Under the pieces are notes generated by a model, which worked only from the letters and a program-made list of their open reading frames with translations, was not told the origin of the DNA and searched no databases. A stretch of 61,144 nt of DNA, from contig KZ538592.1 of assembly GCA_000934665.2 (NCBI GenBank), positions 1 to 61,144 on the forward strand, in the 5' to 3' direction. This DNA is from Catajapyx aquilonaris. Lineage: Eukaryota. Shown piece after piece: positions 169 through 53,710 of this stretch (position 1 is the stretch's first letter; every line of letters begins with the position of its first letter). A program made the position numbers and the translations under genes.

Positions 169-1029
169 GGAGCGCAGTGGTCTAGTGGCTAAGGCGCTTT
201 CTTCGTAACCTGAAGGTTGAAGGATCGAATCCTGAAAGAAAGGAAGAAGTCGTTTCTTTTTATCGCTGTGGACCTTTCTCGCTGTTACTTGGTCTCTCGT
301 TTCACATTTATTTCTCTTTGAACTGCATCTGGTAAATAGGCTAGACCCTTCCAACACCCATAACTTCGTTACCACAGAGCGTGGCACTGTGGTAACGCAT
401 CAGACCAGTCGGGAGATGTGGGTTCAAATCCCGAATCTCCACAGTTGATGAGTCAGAAAAAAAATTTGCAGCCGACATCTCTGGCCAAGATGGCGACTGT
501 TTCTTCGCAGTTTCCCAGACACTTCTTCAGAGGTGTCAGAGGAGCAGCGAAGAGGGGGGGAGGGGTGGAGAGGGGGAGGAAAGGGGGGCAGGGGAGAAAA
601 ATTTTTTGGAAATTTTTAAAACGCCTGCTTAATGGGAGGGGGCGGTCACTTTTTTCGAAGAAAAAAGTCTTAAATTTAATCATTCAAAGAATTGAGGTTT
701 GTGTGGGCCATCCCCAGCCCCCGCCCTACCGCTGCCCAAGTGGGTGCATTTACCTTATACCTGGGAGTTCCATTCTCAAACCTATCATCCCCCCAAATAT
801 TTAAGTCTACAATTTAAACTATAGGTCCAATGAAATCACCAGCACATGCAAATGAATCGGCACAATTTTTAGGTCATTTTCAATGTTTTGTTACAGCCTG
901 ACCTTTGACCTGAAAGGCCCTAATATTAGGTTTTTGGTCTGGGGCCAGGCCCTACCTCGGTCTCCATCTGTCGGGTCTCTCGTAATGAGACTGTATACAG
1001 AGCACGGTACAGTATACAGTATATCTCTC
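169..1029 (+). mobile_element. tRNA-derived SINE-like repeat, copy 1
   Basis: 331-1029 is a high-identity reverse complement of 1266-1977. Two tRNA-like A/B-box modules: about 169-238 (tggtctagtgg...ggatcgaatcc) and about 385-440 (tggtaacgc...ggttcaaatccc). No coding capacity. Confidence 0.6.
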
Positions 1030-1265: not shown

Positions 1266-2130
1266 GAGAGATATATACTGTATATCTATGTACTGTGCTC
1301 TGTACAGTCTCATTACGAAAGACCCGACAGATGGAGACCGAGGTAGGGCCTGGCCCGAGACCAAAAACCTAATATTAGGGCCTTTCAGGTCAAAGGTCAG
1401 GCTGCAACAAAACATTGAAAATGACCTAAAAATTGTGCCGATTCATTTGCATGTGCTGGTGATTTCATTGGACCTATAGTTTAAATTGTAGGCTTAAATA
1501 TTTGGGGGGATGATAGGTTTGAGAATGGAACTCCCAGGTATAAGGTAAATGCACCCACTTGGGCAGTGGTAGGGTGGGGGCTGGGGATGGCCCACACAAA
1601 CCTGAATTCTTCAATTCTTTGAATGATTAAATTTAAGACTTTTTCCTTCGAAAAAAGTGACCGCCCCCTCCCATTAAGCAGGTGTTTTAAAAATTCCCAA
1701 AAAAAATTTCTCCCCTGCCCCCCTTTCCTCCCCCTCTCCACCCCTCCCCCCCTCTTCGCTGCTCCTCTGACACCTCTGAAGAAGTGTTTGGGAAACTGCG
1801 AAGAAACAGTCGCCATCTTGGCCAGAGATGTCGGCTGCAAATTTTTTTCTGACTCATCAACTGTGGAGATTAGGGATTTGAACCCACATCTCCCGATTGA
1901 GAGTCTGATGCGTTACCATAGTGCCACGCTCTGTGGTAACGAAATTATGGGTGTTGAAAGGGTCTAGCCTATTTACCGGTCCAGTGAAGTTACGGAAAAT
2001 GAAATATAATGAATGCAAGTAATGAATATATGAGAAAAAATGAGAACGAATAACACGCTGAGAGGGATTCGATCCTACAACCTTTGCATCAAGCGGCCGA
2101 CATCTTATCCAGTAGACCAAGCCACCACTT
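1266..2130 (-). mobile_element. tRNA-derived SINE-like repeat, copy 2 (inverted)
   Basis: Reverse complement of copy 1. It has its own diverged tRNA-like head at about 2055-2130 (minus strand: tggtctactgg...ggatcgaatccc). Confidence 0.6.
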
Positions 2131-12574: not shown

Positions 12575-29433
<16,859 letters not shown>

Positions 29434-33200: not shown

Positions 33201-35225
33201 TTAAAATTGTGTTTATTTTTTTGCTTAACATTCCTGACCATTTCAGTGTACATTGGATTTGTGGGATTGGCATAAGGACTTTTGGAGATTTATGGCAGGG
33301 ATTTGTTATTACTAGCAGGGTTTCCATGTTGTTTATTTCGCTGCCATGGTGACCCTGTTGCCATTTGGGCAAACAAACAAACAAACTGCGTCTTTTATAT
33401 ATGTAAGATATGTGACCAAGCAGTTACTCCTGGTCAATGTTACATTTTGCGCTTTTTATGTGACATACTCGACAACCCATAAGCTACATATTCTGTGTAA
33501 TCAGTATATTTTGATGTAAGCGAGTGAACATTTTCTTCAGGTTGACTCTAATATTCCATAATTCCATATTTCCCCTATATTTGCTATATTTAAAAAAATG
33601 ATCGAATCCGTCAAATTGCGCGTGTATTTGAAGTGACCACAAAATAATGAATATAATTCAGACAGTCATAAGCACACTGCAGGGCAACATGAAATGTTAT
33701 CGGATGATTGGGTCTATCACTTGCATTGTCTCCTCTCACTTCCATCAACCAACTCTGACATAATGAGCAAAAGGGTCAACACTCTCAACTTTCTCCTACT
33801 ATATAGTTAATAGTCTGCAACATACGAGTGTGGGTCAGCTTCATTTGCATGTGAAATCCTAAAGTGCAGTCCCAGGTATAGCTCGAACAACACACAGGTA
33901 TGTTACTATGGTTGAGTCTCCGGAATTTCCGGTGACAACATTTTATCGATAACTTTTCTACGCCTTGAGGTTATGGGGATATTCGGCGGAAGTCCTACGA
34001 CAATGTTTTATCACCATGCGAGGAAATGACGCATTTTTCATAACGTAACAAAAAAAAAACTGAAACAAAGTTGTATGTTGGGATATGAAGGTCTCGTATA
34101 TGTTTCCGTAGTGATTATCGTGCCCCTTGCAAGGTTGGAATGCGAGATAAGTGCATGTGTGTCAATATAGTGTGATGTTCAAAGTGATACTAATTCCATT
34201 GCGGTAAGCTGTGGGATTTTAAGTTATCGTGTATAGCAGCAGGGTACTTTTTGTGCGAAATTTTGCAATGTGTGCAGTGTAGCCCAGTAAATTCCTTCAG
34301 GTGCCGCAAATGTTCGCCAATATCATACGTCGCATTCATCCGCGTACTCAACCAGTTCATGGTATGTAACAATATATGTGAACGTGGCGTCACGTGTTAC
34401 ACTTTTTCATGCCAGACTGTTATGATTAAAAGGCAAAAATGCGGTATGCACACAAGTGTGCAAAATAACATTTACAAGCATTGAAGGGTCTAATCGCACC
34501 TTACACAACCTCTGACGTACATACTTGTACATGTATTTAATTTCAATTCCAGGAAATTGCTTTTGTGTGCTGTCTAAGTACCCAGTTTATGACTCTTTAT
34601 ACCTGAGCTGACACTTTACGCAAGGACATATTCATTTTGTCGTGATTGATGCTTCTGCAATTGTTGGTTGACCTAGGCATACTGCCTTACTTTACGCCAA
34701 TTACACGCTGCCGCAGCCAAGTGCGCGTCATGAGCTCAGAGAGGTTTAACAAGTCTAATTTTATCAAACATCGTGACAATACTGCAAGCAAAAGTCATCA
34801 GAGGTCACAAATGCTAATTACGTTTCTACTATCTTTCGCCAATAACATCCTATAGAGCGTCCACGCAGAAAATTATGCATCATCCTGTTTTTTTATTGCG
34901 AATAGTAACATGACCGGTTTTACATGGAAGGAATTGTCTATTATGCACTAGACACGTTTGCTATGTCCGAGGTTCCCGACCTTTTTCAAGGCAATCTGGT
35001 CCCGCACTCGTGCAAAAGATGCTGCACATCATAATGCAGATGCGAAAAGGTCAAACGTCAGACGCAGCATCCATCCGAATCGCTATCTTATCAATAAGGC
35101 TAATAAATTCTGCTGGGAAAGATTAGGGTCTTAAAATTGTCTTCGATAAACTACAGAGTGTGTCCATCATCTTAAAACCATTTTTCGCTATGTCACGTAC
35201 ACAACACGGATGTTGCTTTACAGCA

Positions 35226-38886
<3,661 letters not shown>

Positions 38887-39712: not shown

Positions 39713-40530
39713 ATGGCCAAGATGCTGGACTGCTGTAGATTAGTATTGCTTCTACTCGCATTCATCTTTGTTCAAGGCAACAAGCATCCAGTCTACACGT
39801 AAGTAGGCTATAAGCAGTAACCTATGCATTTAGGCCACTTCATTTAAATCACATTGCAACGTCAACTTTCACAACAAAAACATTTAAAAAGCTAATTAGT
39901 ACCACTGCACTGCAGCGACAGTGGGCTACGCCAAAATAACGCCTTTCCTATATGTACACAACATCATTGTTTCCGGCATACTGTAATCATAATAGCCCTG
40001 AGATATCTCAGAACATGCATGCTGAATCATTGCAATAAATCATTTTGCTAATTTCCTGACAGAGGCGAGGAAATCTGCAACTGCCGTTACCGCATCTTCA
40101 GCAAACCAAACAAAACCAGTGTCTACCTGACAGAAGTGGTCAAGATATTTTCATGCGAAGACGACGGAGACTTTTTCGACTGTCGGATGCACTGCCAAAG
40201 CCAGGTAAGGTCACAAATCAACACTATATGTATACAGTATGCCTATACAATAGAGCAACATTCTGTTATTGACAGCCGATGACCAAATATTACGACCCGG
40301 CCTTTTTGGCAATGGCATACTTCGGTGACGTAGATGACGACGTGGACATAGCAGAAGCGGCCTGCATGCTCCAGGAAAATAATAAGGCGACTGTGAACGT
40401 GTACTTCAAAGTGTGCCAACTGCACGAAATGCAGGCCGGATCCTTCCAATTTTGTTGCAAAGAAACTCAAGAGTACGCATGGGTCCACACCGGAGACGAC
40501 AGATGCAATCCGACCAGATCCATCATATGA
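39713..40530 (+). CDS. secreted 10-Cys protein, paralog A (divergent, 3 exons, about 160 aa)
   Basis: Exons 39713-39798, 40063-40204, 40276-40530. Signal peptide ..RLVLLLLAFIFVQG. Core CNC..FSC..FDCRMHC..EAAC..KVC..FCC..WVHTGDDRC. AATAAA near 40557. Confidence 0.85.
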
Positions 40531-41395
40531 ACACATCATCAATTTATATTGTTCTAAATAAAATTCTCACTTACCTCCACCGCACTGTTTGATTGTTGCA
40601 TTTGGATAGCCTTCAGCAGGTACACTTCAAACACCAGTCCTGAGAGACACAATTCAGATGAATGCATCTACAGCAGCACCTTCAGGAGATCAATAAAAAC
40701 GTCATGACATTCCATATAAACCGGCTTGGGAGTTATATCATTCATGAAAATATCACTTTCATCTGTTGCATTCCTGAATGCAAATCAGAACAATGAACAA
40801 AGGAATAGTCATCCCAACAATCATTAGCACAAGCATTGTAAAGTCTATTATTATAATAAGTAACCTTTTGTCCTAGGTAGGAAGTGATAGGAACAGTTCA
40901 GCAGATGGAGTCGGACAGGCGATACAGGTTGTGCACATGTCATCTTTAAGTTATATGTAATGTTTCATACGGGCAGAGAAATGCTTCATGCTCATCAGTA
41001 GGTAGTTCATTATGAAACCTAAGGCTTGGTTGGGAGCTTCTTCATAATGAGTTTCTCCACATTTGCAATGGGCATATTTGCGTGATAAACCCATGCAGGC
41101 ATTATCGACACTGATTTCAACATAACATGATCCTTCTAAAAAATCATGATCAATAAGTAGCTGCAATAACTAATTATATTTTTTAATTACTGCTGTAACT
41201 TGTCAATTTTATGCTTGTTCACCATCATATGACAATGATCACAGGATTATCTGATTCATAAGAATTTATTGCTTCGTTACACATCTATCATTTTCACTTC
41301 TGCTAATCTACTATAGTTAAGGTTGCATAAACTTCTCATTGCAAATTCAACAGATGTTTTCATGCAAACAGGTATTTTTTTTCCAGCCCCCAACG

Positions 41396-42239
41396 ATGCT
41401 GTGTTTGACATCAACCACCATTTTAGCGACATTCCACTTGATAACTGTAGTACACAGTGAAATGCAATTACAAAAAGTGCCTCTGTCCAAGCCCAAGTTA
41501 GTCACATGATTATTATTACACAATCCAGTTTGAATGATCTCACTTTCCCACCTAATGACTGGGTTTTTCTCTTATTTTTTTTAAAGGGAAATTTGTTTGT
41601 GCCTATTTCAAGTGCAATTTGGAGAGACAGAAGAAGACCAAAAGTTTCTCAGCAAACAACACAAAGTGTTCACCTGTGACCATGAAGATGATTTCTACGA
41701 GTGCAGACTGCTCTGCGCATACCAGGTGACAATTATTGCGCATTTTAATCAGAATGAGAACAACACAATGCCTGGCATTGTTGCCAATATTTTTCCCTCT
41801 CAGATGATGAACCCCAGGACACATAACCCCCACGCCAGAGGGAGAGCCCTCAATGAGGATATGGGTGAAACAGTGAACATTGTTCAGGAGGCTTGTCGGT
41901 TGCAAGAAATGAACAGAGTCACGGTAAGTTGCTCAATGTGCCCCCATCTCACTGTGCTCTGACCTAAAAAAAACACACACACACACTTTTCAGGTGGACA
42001 TACGTTACCAGCTGTGCGACGAAGCAGCCAGAAAGTTCGTCTCTTTTGTCTACTGCTGCGAACCATATCTATTCATACCAGAATCAAGTCACGATGAAGA
42101 AGAGCACATGGCCAGATTGGCCAATAAGGATGACCATGGTCACTCACACGAGCACTCGCACTCACACGAGCACATGGACTCACATGAAGCGAGAATGTGC
42201 TGGAGACACACTACAGACGATGACTGCTACCTTCAGTGA
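41396..42239 (+). CDS. secreted 10-Cys protein, paralog B (His-rich loop, about 201 aa)
   Basis: Exons 41396-41496, 41587-41725, 41804-41923, 41994-42239. Hydrophobic leader, then CLC..FTC..YECRLLC..EAC..QLC..YCC..WRHTTDDDC. Confidence 0.88.
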
Positions 42240-43953
42240 CGAAAGAAGTCACCAACACGCGTAGCATTTCATCAGGACAGTGAAACAGTGAAGATTTTTT
42301 TAAATGCAGTGCATCCTGCTGTACATGATGTTCAATGTTAACTTTTCAGTAAGATCTAAAAAATATATAAATATTTTTGAGACGATCTGTGTTCACTTCA
42401 CCATTTGGCTTAACCCAAATATCGACTTTATCGACCGGCTTCTTTTTAAAGACGCTTTTCCCATTTCCAAATAAATATTATGATGATCTTCCAGATTTTA
42501 CAGCTATTGTCACCCTGTCACAGACTATATTATCCTATGTCCGTTTCGAATGCCAAGATTATTTTGTTAACATGCTTGTAGTATATTTTATAAGTCAAAA
42601 AATGTCAGGGTTCCTGAGAAACAAAACATGTACGCGCAACCATCAAAAGAATAAATTAGGTGACCAAGTAAATGCAAGCATTTGAAGCCTCGATGTGCAG
42701 AATATTATCAGTCATGTTTTGGTTGAAATTGAGTTAGTCATTGTGTATTATTGTCCCTGGCCATCAAGCTAGTGTTCTTGTTAGGGCACATACGGTCAAG
42801 AAAAATATGTAAAAGAAACTAGACTGATCATTCTGCATTTCCGGTATCACCTTGTTTTGGCAAATGGATAGTTAATAGTACAAATAATTATCGCCGAAGA
42901 TGGCATGAAATTACGTGTACGTGAACAACAGCATTCGAGTCATGGCCTTATAACTCACAATTATTTAACTGTACAGAAATATAATAGCAAGATCACCTAA
43001 AAGAGATGTGCAGGAGCAATATTAGTGTAGTTTAGATGAGTGGATAGCTTCATGTTTCGGCAAATAATTTAAATTAATAGCAAACGTAGAACGCAAAATA
43101 CCTTTGCGACGAAAATTGAAATTAATTTGCCATATAATTATAATAGTTGAACAAAAACTCTCTGCAAATGGGTTTTCAGTATTTCGGTATAAAATACTTC
43201 CGACGTGAATTATTATTCGTAGTTGAACTTTCAAATCATAGAGTAATGCTATAAACGTGAGGTAATGACAATTAAGCGCAGGGGGGGGGGGGGGAGTGTC
43301 TCCCATATAGCCTACGGATGATTTATTCGATCCCTTATAAACTATTTCCATCCTTTGCAAGGCGGAATACAAGTCGGAACAATGAACAAAGGCGTCGTTA
43401 GACCTTCAATCATTAGCACTGAATATGGTGCATTGTAAAAATTAATGAGGTCCATTTGTCCTATAGGCTGCAGTAAGAGATATAGGAAGCGAATAGTTCA
43501 GCAGATGGAGTTGGACAGGCGATACAGGTTGTGTGCACTTATTAACATTTCATTCAGACAAAATTACACGTTTCATTATGTGAGGGAAGGATGCTGCAAT
43601 ATATTGTCATATTTTGAGTGACAATCCCTGGCAATATCGATAGACATGACACTAACTCTGATTTCAACGTAGCATGAGCCATTCCGAACACCATTATCAG
43701 AAAGTATAGGGTGCAATAACTAATTATACTTTTTCTACTGCTGTAACTTGTCAATGGCATGTACAACTTTATGCTTGATCACCATCAAGTGACGAAGCAT
43801 TTGGCAATGATTACAGGATTACAATATTAAGAAAATTCAGTGTTGCGTTATGCATTTTCACTTGTGTTTAGAAACTCGTCGTCGCCATAAAACACCTAAC
43901 TTCAAATTCAACAGATCTTTTCATGCAAACAGGTATTTTACCGGCCCCCAACG

Positions 43954-44803
43954 ATGCTGTCTTTGGCAACCACAATGTTAATGACATTCCACTTGATGAC
44001 AGTAGCAAGTAATCAAGTTCAAATGCAAAAAGTGCTTCTGTCCAAGCCCAAGTTAGTCACATGATTATTACACAATCCAGTTTGAATTATCACACTTTCC
44101 CAACTAATGACTCTTTTTTTTCCTTTAAAAAAAAGGGAAATTTGCTTGTGCCTATTTCAAGTGCAGTTTGGAGAGACAGAAGAAAACCAAAAGTTCCTTA
44201 GAAGAGAACACAAGGTGTTCACCTGTGAAAATGAAGATGATTTCTACGAGTGCCGCCTGCTGTGCGCATACCAGGTGACGACTGCACATTTTAATCATAT
44301 ATCTGGAGCACAAAATTTCCCCACTCATTGTTAACTAAATATACTAGATAATAATAATGTTAATTCCACTACCACTGTGATCCTGGTTATGACTCGGACC
44401 TTCCTCACAGATGATGAACTCTAGGACACACCATCCCCATGCCAGAGGAAAAGCCTTCAGTGAATATACCCAGCAATCAGTGAACATTGTTGAGGAGGCC
44501 TGTCGGTTGCAAGAAATGAACAAAGTCACGGTAAGTTATTCGTCAGATCCCAACTGTACTTTTGACCTAAAAGACACGCTTCAGGTGGACATACGTTTCC
44601 AACTGTGTGACGAAGCAGCCAGAAAATTCGTCTCTTTTGCCTACTGCTGCGAACCATTTCTGTTCCTACCAGAGGAAAGTCACGATGAAGAAGAACATGC
44701 GGAGAAACTTGAACAGGGAAAGATTAAAAGCACTGCCGGTGACTCGCATGAAGTGAAAATGGCTTGGAGATACACTCCAGACGATCATTGCTACCTTCAA
44801 TGA
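43954..44803 (+). CDS. secreted 10-Cys protein, paralog C (about 191 aa)
   Basis: Exons 43954-44051, 44136-44274, 44411-44530, 44585-44803. Close duplicate of B. Confidence 0.88.
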
Positions 44804-45505
44804 CGAAAAGACAGTAATAATAATAATAAACCACTCGTGAAATTCTCAAAGTCATTCAGTAATGAGCACTCGATGAAGGCAAATAAGGCGCCAGATTCTT
44901 ACAACTATCACTTATACGGACGGTATTTATTTTGAAAATAGTATTAATGCAGTACTTCAAGCGCGCCTTAATACTACACATTAAAAATTGGTTCGGGATA
45001 AGCCCATGTTCAAAATATTTGAAGACATGAAATACAGAGCGATCTCCTAAAGTATGCGTGCCATTAAACAATTTCCCTTTTGCATATCAAGTTTTCATTT
45101 CATTTTACTTGGCATTTTGTGAATAAACATTATGACTGTGTATCACTTATCCTGCACTATAATAATTATCCTAATTTCTACAATGAGAGTAAACATGGAT
45201 TTAGCAGCACACAATGGCCTGCCAGAACACACGTATCACACTGAACTTGGTTTTTCACGTTTACAATGACATTTTTAGTTTACTATCAAACCAACTGGGG
45301 GGAAAATACAGCACAACAATCAGTCATTGTCTGCAGCTTCAATCGCAATGAAATATGGCCCAGATAATAGCCGAGAATGTTGGTGTTATCACAGGCTATA
45401 TCACATCACATAATATGTTTTAAGTCTTCTGCCCTTAACTCCAGCTGTTATAATTGTACGAGGGCATAGACTGCTGTTTACCACGCTTCCTCACATTGTT
45501 ACAAC

Positions 45506-46298
45506 ATGCTGTGTGTGTGGGCCACTATTTTAGTTTCAAGTGTTGCTGCAACAAAATTAGATCCTTCCTCTTCTATGGAGCACACGGACATCATCTCAAT
45601 GGCCAAGTAAGTACTTCACTTCCCTCAAATAGAGCTGTAACACTTAATCTGCCTTTTTTAAAATATTTATAAAAGGGTAAGTTGCATGTGCTGGTATCAA
45701 GTACAGTTTGGAAAGCATCCTGAAAACCAAGTGTACCTCGTCAAGGAATACAAGGTGGTTACCTGCGCAGAAGAAGATGACGTGTACGAGTGTCGATTGC
45801 TATGTGCCAACGAGGTATGATTATTCAGCATCCACTTGAGCTGATAAATCATCCTGATTAATAATAATCGTTGCACTCTGTCCATTGCAGATGATGAACC
45901 CAAGGACTCATTTGCCCCATGCAAAAGGATTAGCTTACGACATGCAGTTCCAGAGAGAGGTCAACATTGTCAGCGAAGCATGTCGATTACAACAACGAGA
46001 GAGAATTACGGTAAAATGACTCAATATCACCCTGAATGGTAAGATTACCATGTTTGAAATGTGAACTCAATTATTCCAGGTGGACGTGAGATATCAGATG
46101 TGCAACGACAGTAACTTCAAGTTCATCTCTTTCGACTACTGCTGCATGCCGTTTTACTTGTACAACACGGACGGAAATTCAGAAGAGTACAAGCATCTGA
46201 AGAAGCTGTCTAATGAAGAGCTGCCTTTGGACTCTCATAATACAAAGGTGGTCTGGAAATTCACACCCAATGATCACTGTTTTGTCACCGAAGAATGA
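45506..46298 (+). CDS. secreted 10-Cys protein, paralog D (about 192 aa)
   Basis: Exons 45506-45606, 45676-45814, 45891-46010, 46080-46298. CMC..VTC..YECRLLC..EAC..QMC..YCC..WKFTPNDHC. Confidence 0.88.
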
Positions 46299-46909
46299 AG
46301 GACGATTCATTTGCATGTTCAAGGCTTAATTAGTGACTAGTGCATTGGATGGTAAATTAAGATCAATAATAAATGGTGCACTAACCTTTGGATGAATAGT
46401 CAGAAGGTGAAAGGCTAACTGGCAAGCTTCTCCAGCAAATGAAGCAGATGATAAGTTTCGCTAAGCCATCTTGACATCTAAGCAAATCAAGAAGAAGCCA
46501 ATATGAAATTCGGTGTCTGGTACAATTTTACATAATAAAATGTAACTTCCTTTCATGCATTGAAAATGTTTTATATGTACAGTATTAATAAATCCATTTC
46601 ATCAGCAACATGTCAAGTGAGAGTATGACTTTCTCAGTACTGCACAAAGAAGAAGCTAGAAAATTCACGGCCAGGAATTTCATTGTGCTGTATCAAATTG
46701 CAACACACTGATATCACCTTCAACCTTCATGAAACAATCCGCATAACATAATGACCAAAAAGGGCAAGGAGGGAGGTCAGTCGCATGGCATAAAACTCCT
46801 TAAACTGTGTAATAGGTTGAGGTTGAACAACATCAGTGCCCTGTGTGAAGGAACATCGAAAAATAGACTCTTCCACTTGTCACATCTGCTACCGACAATC
46901 TTTTTTAAA

Positions 46910-47758
46910 ATGTTGTGGATATGGACCTCGGCATCATTGGTTCTGTCACTGTTTGTTACAGATACTTCATGTGGCAGTCCAAAATTTACCTTCTTAAATG
47001 CCAGGTTAGTTCCACAGCCAGAACATACTTATACGGCATATAAACAAGCTGCTATGTATTTGGACTAAATTAATTTTCTTCTCCCCTGCTTCTGCGAAAA
47101 TAGGTCAGAGTGCAAGTGCTTGTATCAAGTGAAGTTTAGTGATGATCCTAAACATGCGATTTTTCTCACCAAGGATCATAAGGTGTTTAGTTGCAGCCAT
47201 CAAGAGGATATCTATGAGTGCCGACTAATGTGTGCATATGAGGTGACATTCGAGGCAGTTTAATTCGTTCACTGCCAGAATAATGTTAAGCGGTTCTTTC
47301 AGATGATGGGCGTCAAGACCTACATGCCTCATCCTAATGGATCTGCCTACAGCAAAGAATTGAACAAATATGCGAACATAGTGAATGAAGCCTGTCGACT
47401 GCAACAAATGGCCAAGGTTACGGTAAGCCATTCTCAAAGTGTTACGTGCACTACTAGCACATGAAAAGCATAATTATTGCAATCCTACTATTGTATTATA
47501 CGAGTAGTTAAAAAATACTCCTTTATGGATGCCACAAACATCTAATCATTTCAGGTGGACATACGGTATGAAATGTGCAACAACGGTGATCGCAAGTTCA
47601 TTTCATTTTCTTACTGCTGTGAATCATATCAGACCTCAACCGCTAATTCTGATCATGACGGCATGAAACACTCTAAAAATAACAACACACTGCAAGGGAA
47701 AGATGTCAAGTTATCCTGGAAGTACACTAACAACAACAGTTGCTTATTGTATCATTAA
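46910..47758 (+). CDS. secreted 10-Cys protein, paralog E (about 185 aa)
   Basis: Exons 46910-47004, 47104-47242, 47303-47422, 47555-47758. CKC..FSC..YECRLMC..EAC..EMC..YCC..WKYTNNNSC. Confidence 0.88.
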
Positions 47759-48157
47759 TTCATGTGGAATTATTTTCAAAACTCTGTATTGTTTTACTAA
47801 TATTCTTTGTAGAATGCATAATGGACTGTGCATAATTAAGCAACTTGGTACGTTATGTCAATTGTACGCTATACAAAAACTCTGAATATTGCAGAAATTA
47901 TTTTCACCCTCACCTATCGCATTGGGAACAGTTAGAGAATACATGAAAAGTTGGGTTCACACAGGGAAAAACATTCTAATCATAATAATTATCAGTCTGG
48001 CCACTTCTCTTGCACGTAAAGAAGCGGCTGCACTGAGCAGTACAAAGTCACAAGTGTCAATAATTGCACTGAAATAGAGTTGAACATTTAACTGTTACCT
48101 TTGGAGACCCTGACAAATCACCGTAGAAACACACAACAACACTTTCAGTCGTCAAAA

Positions 48158-48973
48158 ATGCGGTTTGTATTTTCCAGTGTGCTTCTTTTGAGCACAGTCA
48201 TCATAGCCAATGGGTTGGAGGTTTCAGTGCCAAATAACGACACATCTACAACTTCAGTCCCTGAAAGGACTGCAAGCCAGGCTAACAAGTACATCCTGGG
48301 ATTCAGTTAATATCACTGGGATCGTAAAACATTATCTTTCTTTTTCCAGAGACTGCAACTGCCAGTATCAGGTAAAATTTGGAGAAGACAGCAGAACCAA
48401 TGTGTACCTGGAAGGTAGCTACGAGGCATTTGGTTGCAAATCAGAGGAAGATGTGTTTGAATGTCGCCTGCTGTGTGTCTACAAGGTGAGACTATAGGCA
48501 CTTGAAAGATTCAACAATCCATAAATTAAATCCTGGCATGCAGGTGATGAATCGAAATACCCAGTTGCCCCACGCCAAAGGATTGGCCTGGCTGAAAGGC
48601 GACAAAAATAAAACCAAAGTAAATATTGTGAGTGAGGCTTGTCGCCTGCAGAAGAAGGATCGTGTCACCGTAAGTCTATCGCCAGACTCTTGTAGTTGAG
48701 AATGACCATGCCTTTAAAATCTAATTGCAGGTCGATGTTCGGTACCAACTGTGCAATGGTCCCAACAAAGTTTTTCTATCTTTTGATTACTGCTGCGAAC
48801 TTGAGGATCTCCTAATAGAAAATTTTTTGAAAAAAGGTGTCCACAAAAATGCTCCCAATTCGAGTTATTACTTCAACACCCATGAACATGAGCTGCAGCA
48901 GGACGACTTCACCTCCCAAGGCTTTCCAAGGATTTGGAAGTACACCCCCGACCAGTCCTGTCTCTCAGCCTAA
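48158..48973 (+). CDS. secreted 10-Cys protein, paralog F (about 211 aa)
   Basis: Exons 48158-48288, 48350-48485, 48544-48669, 48731-48973. Clear signal peptide MRFVFSSVLLLSTVIIANG, then CNC..FGC..FECRLLC..EAC..QLC..YCC..WKYTPDQSC. Confidence 0.88.
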
Positions 48974-49427
48974 GGTGCCCAATGCATTTTTACAGTGGCA
49001 CTACCAAATATGTGTCTTTTCATTGCACAGCATGAGTAGCTCAGTTGTCCGGAGAAACCAAAATTTTTGATTGCCCAAAAAATGCACCAAATTACAATAA
49101 AAATCGAAATTCCAGCATGGAAATCAAAGACACTGGTTTTGATTTCTTTCAGTCAACCGCTGGAATTACTCTCAAATTACACATCAATATTATATTTAAG
49201 TGCCCAAACTACTCAACATACCCTCTGCTTACCTAAATACGTCTCAATGTCTCATGTGCATCTCAAAAATGTTAACCTGTGCAGCACACACACTGCAGGT
49301 CATTCAGTTGGAATGCCCTGATTCGCATTCATCATCATTTATTTCATCATCATCCTGATTCGCATTCAGGACAAATGACAAGTGCCGTTAATAGATGCAG
49401 ACTTTTTAATGAATGTGCCTGTGCATG

Positions 49428-51519
49428 TCAAGGAAGCCTTTCGAGGAAACCCGAGGTCTTGCGCACACCGCTCCATAAGATGACCATTATTGCTATGTAG
49501 AGAACAAACCAAAGCAGGAGGGCTGACAGCAAGTAGTAGAGGTAGATGACGAAACCTGTAGGAAACCAAGGAAATTAATTAGAGAACTGTCATGCTTTTA
49601 GTGAGGTGACACATACGCAGGGTTACAATAACATCACCGTCACTTTATGCGTACAGTGCGTGATCTTGCCAACCTTTAGCCTGATGACTTACGTCTGCTG
49701 TGAATCAGATGAAGCCTGTTCATTGGCGACACTCTGTATACTCCAGTCGGTATGCCATCCACAAAGCACCTGTAGGTTCCTTGGTCCTTGACTACTATTG
49801 AACTTATACGCAGCCTGTGTGCAAGATCAATTCGCGCCCTGCCTCCGAAAAGGCGTTTCAGATGCTTCGGAGTTAGGGTTTGGGCTCCTACGGTCCACTT
49901 CACTGTCGACTCCAGTTTTGCCCTGAATAATCATTTTAAAGACACGTCAGTACATAATCATTGCAATTACAGTAATCGATGTGGTGAACAAAAAATGTCA
50001 GAATACGATTTTGTTTAAATTGTTCAGGAAAGTATGCATTTGAAAATAGGTAAATCACATTTGTTAATTATTCGAATTTTCAAAAACATTACAGCTGGAC
50101 TTTAAATTATTATTATCACAAAATGGACTCAGCTTCTTGACTACTGGGCAAGATATTGCAATAACATTTTCACTTTTATTTTTGTAACTTTTCTAATATT
50201 CATTGTGTTTACTGCATTACATTTGTTGGAATCACTCACTGAGGGCAATGGAACGAAATGTCCTTGTCTTCAATAAATTCCAGAAAAAACTGTTCCTCCT
50301 TGGGTAGAGCCTTCTCGGATCCACTGCCCAGTTCTGGATGACTTTCCGAACCTGCATCGCTGCCTGAACCTGCACAAACAAGAATGCACTTAATTATTGC
50401 ACTTTAAACTGCAGTAATCTCCAACTGACTGCCGCCTTGGTCGCAGACCGCAATGCATTTTTCCTCCAGGATGAAATCCGGTATCTCCCTGAGTACGTCT
50501 GACAGGACAGGAGTGCTTTTGGCCAGTTCCATAGAGTGGCATGTAAACTCATGCGACAGCATACCAGCTTCCTCTTCGGACAGTTTCGCCAAAGCTCGTG
50601 ACTTGCTGTTCAAATCTGCCAATTTCTGAAAATATACGGCCATAAGGTTTTTTTATATTTTTTGTTATTACGAGTACATTCGTGCACCTACCTTGTTGTC
50701 CTCAGGCATGTCTCTGACTCTGCAGGTCCCCATTCTGGTTCTCCAACCAGGTGTGTCACCACATGAGCACTTGCTCCATGGCTCCCATCGGTTCGTTGCT
50801 TGAAGGTTATATCCTGCCTCTCGAAGTCGCTTGAAAGGCTCGTCTGTTGACTTCTCCAGCTTGTAGTTGATAGGATGCATATTGTCTATGTGGTACATTC
50901 TCCACACGTCCCAACCGCCATGCATCGGCTCCCTCGTAGCGCTCAGTTTGGCTGAAAAAAATATTAGCAGCAATATTAGCAGTCACATTATATATATATT
51001 TTAAAAACCAACAGGACGTCATATTATATGGAGCTGTGTGCATGCGTACTGTACAACTTACAGTCGACAATGTAATTGATTGTGCGTGAGGAGTCTTCTG
51101 CAGCCAGGACGCAGGAGTAAGTAGCAATCTTATGGTACATAAAGTTTAGGATAATTAGAGTTTTGTCTGAAGTAATTTCCATCTCATCGTCAGGGGTGAT
51201 CATAGTTGGATCGTTAATGAAGAAGCGATCGCTGCTGAACCACTGCCTGTCTAATCCCTCATTGTCATTGCTGTATTTTTTTAAAATAACAACAAATATC
51301 AGATTTCATAAACTGTTAATATATTCTACTGGCTAGCGATACTCACCAAAAATGGCAAGGCATTTCGACTCTGTCGCCAAGTGCAGCATCAATCAGCTTG
51401 TAAACCTTGCGCTGATCCTTTCCTAACAATTCCAAATCATCTACGCATGATTTTTCTGCATCACAGAACCATGGGAATAGCATGGCACATGTTGCAAATA
51501 TGCATAAGCACGAATGCAT
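49428..51519 (-). CDS. FAM187-like type I membrane protein (signal peptide, Ig, TSP1-like, Ig, TM), 7 exons, about 441 aa
   Basis: Exons (minus) 51519-51347, 51270-51062, 50951-50692, 50625-50430, 50369-50240, 49922-49693, 49555-49428 (1326 nt, in frame). Ig1: LGDRVEMPCHFC..RQWF..TLII..ATYSC. TSP-like: WEPWSKCSCGDTPGWRTRMGTC. Ig2: ISFHCP..VKW..RLRI..DQGTYRC. TM: FVIYLYYLLSALLLWFVLYIAIMVILW. The architecture matches my recollection of FAM187A/B, and the family name is less certain than the gene model. Confidence 0.8.
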
Positions 51520-52331
51520 ACTTGGTCCTGTGTGTGTGCAAAAGAAATGTGACAATGCTGCTAATTTAATCCATGTAATAAATTATTGCTTAGTTATTAA
51601 TCAGCTATTTTAGACTATAATAATTATGCACTTGAAATCGATATGGTAACTGATCCTTAACATCATTACAAGTCGTAGCGACGCCTTGTAATGATGTCGC
51701 CTCGATGCCATTAAGACAGATCGATATTTTTTTTAAATAAATGATCTCTGGTTACAGTGACTTACCACCTTTTGTTCTTGGTATCGCGTTTTTAAAAATC
51801 CCTGATTAATCGACACAAATTAATCTTGCTGGTGCTTCATCAGTTACGCCATATCTTTTGTGTCCCTTTAAAAAAAATAATGATTGAGAGCATGGTGCAG
51901 CAATCGGATGAATAAATGACTTCCCTGGATATTCGATCCCCGAACGTGCCAAAATAATGAGTGAAGCATTGTTTGCATGGCAACTATAGTCATGGTATTG
52001 TTATACCCGATCCAATAAACTATCATGTGACGTAAAGGGTTTGATCGTTACGCTCGCGAAGATTATTACTTCTAAGTGAACCCTAGATCACTTTGTGTAG
52101 ACGTATGCATTGTTCAGTAATGAGCAGTGTATTCATTACATCACAGAGCATCGCCTATACAAGAATATTATTTGTTCTTATTTCATCGACGAAGTATGCA
52201 GCTTTATTTTTGTTCCTGTAATCACCTTTCTATATTGAACACAGCAATAAAGATACTACAAATTGTCGCTTCTGGCAGTACGTACTGTACACTAGACAGT
52301 GCCATTGCATTTCTGAACATTCGGACGGAAT

Positions 52332-53107
52332 ATGCTGCCAGTATGGCCAATAATTGTGTGGGTGACAGCAGTGACTGTCACGTCTGCTAACAGAGACGAC
52401 AGTCCAGTGCCAGCAGACAAAACTTTACTGTCTAAAGCCAAGTAAGTTGTCATAATCCGCACAATAATTCAGCGTACAATTATTATTGAATTACCTCCTT
52501 GCTATTCAAGAGAATTATGCACATGCTTGTATCAAGTCCAGTTCGGAGACAGCCTTGGAAAGGAAAGGTTTATGCTAAGTCAGCATAAGGTGTTCACATG
52601 TTACGAAGACGACGACTTCTACGAGTGCCGTCTTCTGTGCGCCTATCAGGTACAGTACACAGCAATGAGTATGTATACAGTACATGTATTGTAATAACTC
52701 GCAGATGATGGACAGGAAGACTTACTTGCCCCATACAAACGGGGAAGCCTTCAGCTCCATACTAAGGGCAGAACTGAACATTGTCGAGGAGGCCTGCAGG
52801 CTTCAGAAAAAGGACAGAGTCACGGTACTGTAAAGTCAACAACCAGTTGCATATGCTACAGGTACTTTTTCCTTTTTTCCAACAGGTCGACGTCAGGTAC
52901 CGTCTCTGCGACGATGCCGATCGTAAGTTCATCTCATTTTACTACTGCTGCGATCCATATTTCGTGACCGCAAAACCATCATCCAGGGAAAACTTTGAAG
53001 TCACAGAACCAACAGACGTAACGGAAACCAAGCCCGGATTCAAAGGACACGAACTTAAGGAAATATCGTGGCGGTACACAGATGAAACAGCATGCCACGA
53101 TCAGTAG
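52332..53107 (+). CDS. secreted 10-Cys protein, paralog G (about 196 aa)
   Basis: Exons 52332-52441, 52511-52649, 52705-52824, 52886-53107. CTC..FTC..YECRLLC..EAC..RLC..YCC..WRYTDETAC. Confidence 0.88.
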
Positions 53108-53407: not shown

Positions 53408-53710
53408 TTTAATGAGATTTACCACTTAGTGCCATTCTTCACGCATAGATGGCTCTCTCCTGCCACCCTCAGGTCGTGCGAGAGATGGCGATACTATCAG
53501 ATCAAACATCCGACGGAGAGAATAAGCCTTTTAGGATTGTGTCGTACTGATGGCAATACTATCAGATCAAACATCCGACGGAGAGAATAAGCCTTTTAGG
53601 ATTGTGTCGTACTGATGGCGCCACCGGACTATTTCTGAAAAAAGAGCGAATCAAAAGTGACTGAATTCTCTCTTTTGCTGCCATTGTTTCGTGGCGCCAC
53701 CAGTACCAGC
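53408..53710 (+). repeat. dispersed repeat with an internal tandem duplication of about 67 bp
   Basis: atactatcagatcaaacatccgacggagagaataagccttttaggattgtgtcgtactgatggc occurs twice. Homologous to about 9555-9700 (cttcacgcatagatggc...caaacatccgacggagagaataagcct). Confidence 0.75.

Follow-up and report, generated by a model that had tools for sequence, protein, structure and literature searches.

A tandem array of seven predicted genes

The window analysed here, a stretch of 61,144 nucleotides (nt) forming positions 1 to 61,144 of contig KZ538592.1 of Catajapyx aquilonaris (assembly GCA_000934665.2), carries seven intact predicted genes, g1 to g7, for small cysteine-rich proteins. All seven lie on the + strand between 39713, the first ATG, and 53107, where the last stop codon ends. 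The starting clue was a listing of stop-to-stop open reading frames between 39000 and 54000, in which three peptide blocks occur seven times on the + strand. Exon borders were set by hand at canonical, frame-keeping sites in the DNA around each block and were then checked by coordinates; automated enumeration of splice sites proved too noisy and was dropped. From g1 to g7 the models encode proteins of 160, 201, 191, 192, 185, 211 and 196 amino acids (aa), so that the seven co-oriented genes of 160-211 aa proposed in a first-pass annotation are reproduced almost exactly. When the seven proteins were compared with the whole window by tblastn only these seven copies were found, with no extra fragment.

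The genes share a common architecture. All 20 introns run from GT to AG and measure 54-264 nt. Exon 2 is 139 nt long in five of the seven genes (142 nt in g1 and 136 nt in g6) and exon 3 is 120 nt long in five of the six genes where it is separate (126 nt in g6), in keeping with the lengths given in the first-pass annotation. The intron phases, which it had described as conserved at 2,0,0, are so in six genes; in g1, where there is no third intron, they are 2,0.

The most divergent copy is g1 (39713..40530, +, 160 aa), which matches the other six by blastp with E-values of 1e-16 to 1e-20. It has three exons (39713-39798, 40063-40204 and 40276-40530), intron 3 having been lost with the fusion of exons 3 and 4. 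The next gene, g2 (41396..42239, +, 201 aa; exons 41396-41496, 41587-41725, 41804-41923 and 41994-42239), has a second intron of 78 nt that is open in frame. It is followed by g3 (43954..44803, +, 191 aa; exons 43954-44051, 44136-44274, 44411-44530 and 44585-44803) and g4 (45506..46298, +, 192 aa; exons 45506-45606, 45676-45814, 45891-46010 and 46080-46298). The introns of g5 (46910..47758, +, 185 aa; exons 46910-47004, 47104-47242, 47303-47422 and 47555-47758) are 99, 60 and 132 nt long, all multiples of three, such that the whole gene lies in one frame and tblastn reports it as a single match of 846 nt. The in-frame stops inside these introns argue against coding intron retention. An alternative in-frame ATG is present upstream of g5, at 46751, a start that comparison with the paralogues does not favour. 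The last two genes, g6 (48158..48973, +, 211 aa; exons 48158-48288, 48350-48485, 48544-48669 and 48731-48973) and g7 (52332..53107, +, 196 aa; exons 52332-52441, 52511-52649, 52705-52824 and 52886-53107), are separated by an unrelated gene on the minus strand.

The copies are old and constrained

All 21 pairs of proteins match one another by blastp, with E-values from 9e-16 to 2e-103, showing that the likeness between them is one of family and not of chance. By Nei-Gojobori counting the proportion of nonsynonymous differences (pN) is below that of synonymous differences (pS) in all 21 pairs. For the 12 pairs with a computable synonymous divergence (dS) the ratio of nonsynonymous divergence (dN) to dS, omega, is 0.18-0.45, and in the other nine dS is saturated.

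The youngest duplicates are g2 and g3, which are 69-72% identical at the amino acid level, with a dN of 0.175, a dS of 0.459 and an omega of 0.38; every other pair is saturated, or close to it, at synonymous sites. Exons 2 and 3 of these two genes are the same length, the indels in exon 1 and exon 4 amount to 3 and 27 nt, both multiples of three, and the introns differ in length by 6, 58 and 16 nt. This is also the only pair for which the DNA can be aligned outside the exons, including about 290 nt upstream. An element upstream of g2 (40757-40933) recurs upstream of g3 (43346-43533), with 71% over 190 nt, indicating that the unit of duplication took in intergenic DNA. In a tree of the paralogues none of the four inner branches is supported.

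The excess of synonymous change and the exon lengths kept between g2 and g3 mark the seven as old duplicates retained for their coding sequence, neither freshly amplified nor in decay. Gene structures, paralogy and constraint are shown by the sequence, as is the lack of detectable relatives treated below, and, judged by their patterns of substitution, the seven genes are old paralogues under purifying selection.

It might still be argued that the models are non-functional, the array being unexpressed or in decay and its frames open by chance or through recent duplication. The genes are, after all, known from sequence alone. None of the seven has a TATA-like element within 300 nt upstream, no upstream motif is common to them beyond what is found in shuffled sequence, and g5 has neither AATAAA nor ATTAAA within 700 nt downstream of its stop, a signal that does follow the stops of the other six. 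We consider this explanation highly improbable, as all seven frames have stayed intact through synonymous divergence that is saturated or nearly so in all pairs other than g2/g3, and in that pair the indels are intronic or multiples of three. The pN and pS counts, the canonical splice sites and the retention of the ten framework cysteines described below in every copy likewise speak against it.

Features of the encoded proteins

The first-pass annotation recorded a hydrophobic leader exon, a framework of ten cysteines and an invariant terminal motif. Exon 1 does encode a leader in all the copies, in which the best ten-residue Kyte-Doolittle mean within the first 30 residues is 1.67-3.55, and by eye small residues can be seen at candidate -3 and -1 positions. 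The leader of g6 has a classical look. No C-terminal hydrophobic segment or retention motif was seen in the seven predicted proteins.

All ten framework cysteines are kept in the seven copies, in the same order and with the expected spacing. Counting from the CxC motif the intervals are 1, 23/24, 8, 3, 32-35, 16, 12 and 0 residues, followed by 15-54 residues to the last cysteine, where the first-pass annotation had 15-55. In addition to the ten, g1 has two cysteines in its leader and g2 one in its tail. The stretch from CxC to CC, which we refer to as the core, is 104-108 residues long in all copies, and the alignment closes in all seven with W-x-[HYF]-T-x4-C, the invariant ending that had been described. 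Residues other than cysteine are also retained, in the motifs YQVxFG, DDxYECRLLC, NIVxEACRLQ, VDxRYxxC, SFxYCC and WxYT, and MMNxRT[HY]xPHxxG is found in six of the seven.

The copies differ in length between CC and the terminal WxxT. This stretch is only 6 residues in g1, giving it a very short tail, and 31-46 in the others, its sequence varies between copies, and the longest tail is that of g6, with 54 residues between CC and the last cysteine. The mature proteins have predicted isoelectric points of 4.7-5.4 in five of the seven cases, those of g6 and g5 being 7.0 and 8.0. Fifteen histidines are present in g2, the tail of which is His-rich (HGHSHEHSHSHEH) with a run of the HSHEHS type, and is partly encoded by an 18-nt tandem repeat (42141-42184, 2.4 copies).

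These features bear on two alternative roles. One is that the proteins are immune or antimicrobial effectors which, by analogy with His-rich antimicrobial proteins of arthropods, would use a stable disulfide scaffold to carry loops diversified for sequestering metals or binding microbes. A tandem array of old, diverged copies would suit such a role, as would the moderately relaxed omega, the variable length of the tail, the His-rich tail of g2 and the secreted look of the proteins. On the other hand, the tail is His-rich in just one of the seven, most copies are acidic and not cationic, and positive selection is not seen, with pN exceeding pS in none of the 21 pairs. On balance we regard an immune role as unlikely. 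The closest comparison for the tail of g2 is with microplusin and hebraein, secreted, acidic, disulfide-bonded antimicrobial proteins of ticks that bind metal and have a His-rich segment, an all-helical structure and six cysteines. While g2 resembles these in having a His-rich tail on an acidic, secreted-looking protein, the proteins of the array have ten cysteines and predicted beta-strands and only one copy is His-rich, which sets the two apart.

The other alternative is that these are secreted signalling ligands, akin to a hormone, cytokine or pheromone, which would bind their receptors through the MMNxRT[HY]xPHxxG loop. The retention of this surface-type loop in six copies, the purifying selection on the core and a mature size of about 140-185 aa, which suits many ligands, could all be accommodated. 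A set of seven old paralogues whose tails are of low complexity is, however, more usual among structural or defence proteins, no dibasic processing sites are present and there is no match to the cystine-knot or any other ligand family. A ligand role therefore seems very unlikely to us.

Searches for relatives

Sequence searches were made with exon pieces and with in-frame read-throughs of introns (g2 exons 2+3 and g3 exons 3+4) as queries, rather than with the spliced proteins. The profile used (A4) was an in-register alignment of exons 2+3 that includes 26 intron-derived positions.

With the exon pieces and read-throughs from all seven genes no Pfam family, at E <= 10, was matched by more than one of the 12 pieces in either set, in agreement with the earlier statement that no named domain could be recognised. 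The best match, to DUF2288, had an E-value of 0.067 and a score of 13.8 bits against a gathering cut-off of 25, and so falls below family membership. Toxin_6, matched by one piece with an E-value of 0.82, was put down to chance, and no other defensin or toxin family in Pfam was matched.

An exhaustive HMMER search with the A4 profile against 1.84 billion representative proteins gave two proteins at E <= 0.001. Neither is a relative: one (P0001) is a proline- and His-rich repeat protein of 3305 aa and the other (P0002) a protein of 653 aa in which a module of about 96 residues recurs, and both scores are the sum of weak matches to repeats. To gauge the content of the library, the result for a neighbouring Phox2-like exon is helpful. 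This exon matched 1138 proteins, many of them named NCBI or UniRef entries from arthropods, the best with 78% identity over half of the query, and so shows that the library does include animal proteomes. Given this value, and given that the ten-cysteine family produced no self hit, the proteins of the source organism are evidently absent from the library.

A search of PDB sequences with A4 gave no match, and profile searches there reached no E-value below 0.3; the BTB protein 6n34, matched by exon 4 with E-values of 0.33-0.38, was taken as a chance hit. Queried with g3 exons 3+4, a word-indexed search of proteins gave no match; nor, with longer lengths allowed, did a lipoxygenase exon from the same window, hence that second query provides no calibration. 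In the ESM Atlas the best scores were 0.87 and 0.84, with recognition values of 1323 and 1886, all below useful levels. A scan of viral contigs gave no match. The sole match in a metagenome scan (L001) shared the word DDDFYEC and nothing else and was likewise dismissed as chance; the open reading frame concerned is beside one of 935 aa that looks to us like a phage tail gene of the tape-measure type. Four motif strings of the family are not printed in the searched text of 8.4 million papers and preprints, which shows that alone.

The first-pass annotation had also seen in the order of the cysteines a resemblance to the follicle cell protein Fcp3C. NlFcp3C has 175 aa, and Fcp3C has been implicated in the chorion, with orthologues in insects only, according to excerpts of PMC5493777; the corresponding excerpts of PMC10487570 describe 70 insect sequences that are highly conserved. 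In being small and implicated in an extracellular product Fcp3C is similar to the proteins predicted here. There is however no detectable similarity of sequence, as the exon 2+3 profile, searched against a library that contains insect proteins (Fcp3C entries were not confirmed there by name), found only the two repeat proteins and nothing of about 175 aa that was Fcp3C-like. Fcp3C also differs in being conserved among insects, and the same excerpts (PMC5493777, PMC10487570) contain neither a cysteine framework nor any mention of a seven-copy array. The link to Fcp3C, proposed from the order of the cysteines, is thus not supported.

More generally the seven proteins might be very divergent members of a known cysteine-rich family, whether of the Fcp3C eggshell type or with another extracellular disulfide domain, that lie below the reach of profiles made from exon pieces. 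The restriction of the profile to exons 2+3 and its intron-derived positions leave room for this, neither of the structural models described below is good enough for a fold search to tell much, and the best named matches of the Phox2-like exon are all from arthropods, making a lineage that bears Fcp3C possible. Against this, HMMER gave nothing besides repeat artefacts, Pfam no family common to more than one piece and PDB nothing below an E-value of 0.3. As Fcp3C is described as well conserved in insects (PMC5493777, PMC10487570), a true member would be expected to surface. We judge membership of a known family to be distinctly unlikely.

Predicted structure

Two AlphaFold models were made. The first, of g2 exons 2+3 with the A4 alignment, has a mean predicted local distance difference test score (pLDDT) of 45.5. 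The second is of g5 exons 2-4 read through the introns, with X at four intron stops and 64 intron-derived residues, and used an in-register alignment of all pieces (A7) on this read-through as scaffold. Its mean pLDDT is 52.0. Scores are 53-75 in most exonic blocks and below 50 in the stretches derived from introns; two blocks that are mostly exonic stand at 48 and 50. This second model begins with a beta-hairpin followed by a helix, continues with two short strands and another helix, and finishes with two long strands and one further strand, placing CxC in a strand and CxxxC in a helix, at low confidence. A fold search with one of the two models gave no match, neither being of a quality that would make such a search meaningful.

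The placing of CxC and CxxxC brings to mind the cysteine-stabilised alpha/beta (CS-alpha-beta) motif found in defensins and in scorpion toxins, which consists of a staple between a CxC strand and a CxxxC helix. The proteins of the array carry both elements in all seven copies, in a predicted strand and helix respectively, but in the reverse order, with CxC 33-34 residues ahead of CxxxC, and in a domain of roughly three times the size, with six additional cysteines. The low-confidence model suggests, then, a defensin-like staple in reversed order.

A probable restricted family of small secreted proteins

The reading we favour, and hold to be fairly probable, is that the products of the seven genes are small, secreted and members of a taxonomically restricted family, that they have a non-enzymatic binding or matrix role, and that the family expanded by ancient tandem duplication and has been held under purifying selection. 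The lineage-restricted expansion of secreted-looking, disulfide-rich proteins put forward in the first-pass annotation is borne out by the results above, whereas the settings it suggested for them (egg coat, cement, seminal, venom or immune) are conjectural. Secretion, the disulfide pattern, the fold and the function are what we infer from the predicted proteins.

In such a family exon 1 would supply an N-terminal signal peptide, followed by a short, variable pro-stretch. The core of about 106 residues, from CxC to CC and encoded by exons 2 to 4, would have a mixed beta/alpha structure probably held by five disulfides, with CxC in a beta-hairpin, CxxxC in a helix, EACRLQ in a second helix and beta-strands ending in CC. 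Beyond it would come a loop of 6-46 residues differing in length and sequence from copy to copy (acidic in most, rich in His in g2, close to neutral in g5 and g6) and presumably tied back to the core by the last cysteine of W-x-[HYF]-T-x4-C. Outside the cell the core would act as scaffold and the variable loop as a diversified surface; that of g2 could bind a divalent metal. The array would have grown by repeated, old tandem duplications, of which g2/g3 was the latest, with purifying selection retaining every copy.

Several points weigh against this reading. The leaders of g3 (1.67) and g2 (2.08) are weakly hydrophobic, and the case for a signal peptide is built on hydropathy and inspection by eye. 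The splice junctions are predicted from consensus sites and from conservation among paralogues. The absence of relatives is limited by a profile of exons 2+3 only, by a threshold of 0.001 in a huge library and by the organism's own proteins evidently not being included in that library. With both models at low confidence (45.5 and 52.0) the fold and the disulfide pairing remain predictions, and composition and analogy are the grounds for proposing a binding or matrix role outside the cell. Since g5 and g6 are not acidic and g1 is almost loopless, the argument for a metal- or mineral-binding role common to all the loops is weak.

A bolder version, which we put forward tentatively as possible but doubtful, is that the core represents a new extracellular disulfide-rich alpha/beta fold, with the CxC/CxxxC staple reversed, that is confined to a poorly sampled animal lineage and displays a disulfide-closed, rapidly remodelled lasso, either acidic or rich in His, by which metal, mineral or matrix would be bound in a coat, cement or defence secretion.

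Tandem arrays that encode secreted proteins rich in cysteine and belong to a single lineage are often found in the genomes of invertebrates. The present genes are like these in having a putative signal-peptide exon, a cysteine scaffold, variable loops, birth-and-death tandem duplication and no relatives beyond a narrow lineage, and differ in their ten-cysteine framework and motifs, for which Pfam, PDB and the library of 1.84 billion proteins gave no match. The family is real and uncatalogued, yet of an ordinary kind for an invertebrate genome. If the models are expressed they constitute an uncatalogued protein family with old copies and no detectable relative among 1.84 billion representative proteins, and so point to a lineage with an unexplored secretome. 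The known folds could gain a new disulfide scaffold from it and, when its tissue has been established, the family may account for a secretion peculiar to the lineage. The array bears on no long-standing question, and the roles proposed for it are candidates.

Other features of the window

Upstream of the array is a Phox2-type paired-like homeobox gene on the + strand (20046-20558 and 26109-26441; Pfam Homeodomain, E-value 1.2e-14), in which an intron of some 5.5 kb splits the homeodomain after ...ARVQ. Its best named relatives are paired mesoderm homeobox protein 2, all from arthropods, within a search whose length windows bias the result. Three genes for tRNA-Leu(CAA), with identical Rfam scores, lie in the long intron of the homeobox gene, at 22737-22821 (-), 23587-23671 (-) and 24065-24149 (+).

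Closer to the array, at 35127-36329 on the + strand, are exons that encode a lipoxygenase of the animal type, preceded at the N-terminus by a PLAT domain (E-value 1.4e-10); among PDB sequences they are matched best by human 5-lipoxygenase and by lipoxygenases of corals (E-values 1e-5 to 2e-4). Between these exons and g1 there is an unbroken run of 514 A (37219-37732), which is either an extreme homopolymer or an artefact of assembly. The minus-strand gene that separates g6 from g7 occupies 49676-51582. One of its exons is weakly immunoglobulin-like (I-set, E-value 0.004, below the Pfam cut-off) and another has, by eye, a W..W..CS...G motif like that of thrombospondin type 1 repeats, unreported by Pfam. 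Just downstream of g7, at 53484-53619, a 65-nt unit is repeated 2.1 times with 98% identity. Near the start of the window are the two copies of an inverted repeat, 364-804 (+) and 1481-1912 (-), whose longest frames give a near-identical peptide (...LQPTSLAKMATVSSQFP...) and which are probably the remnant of a transposable element.

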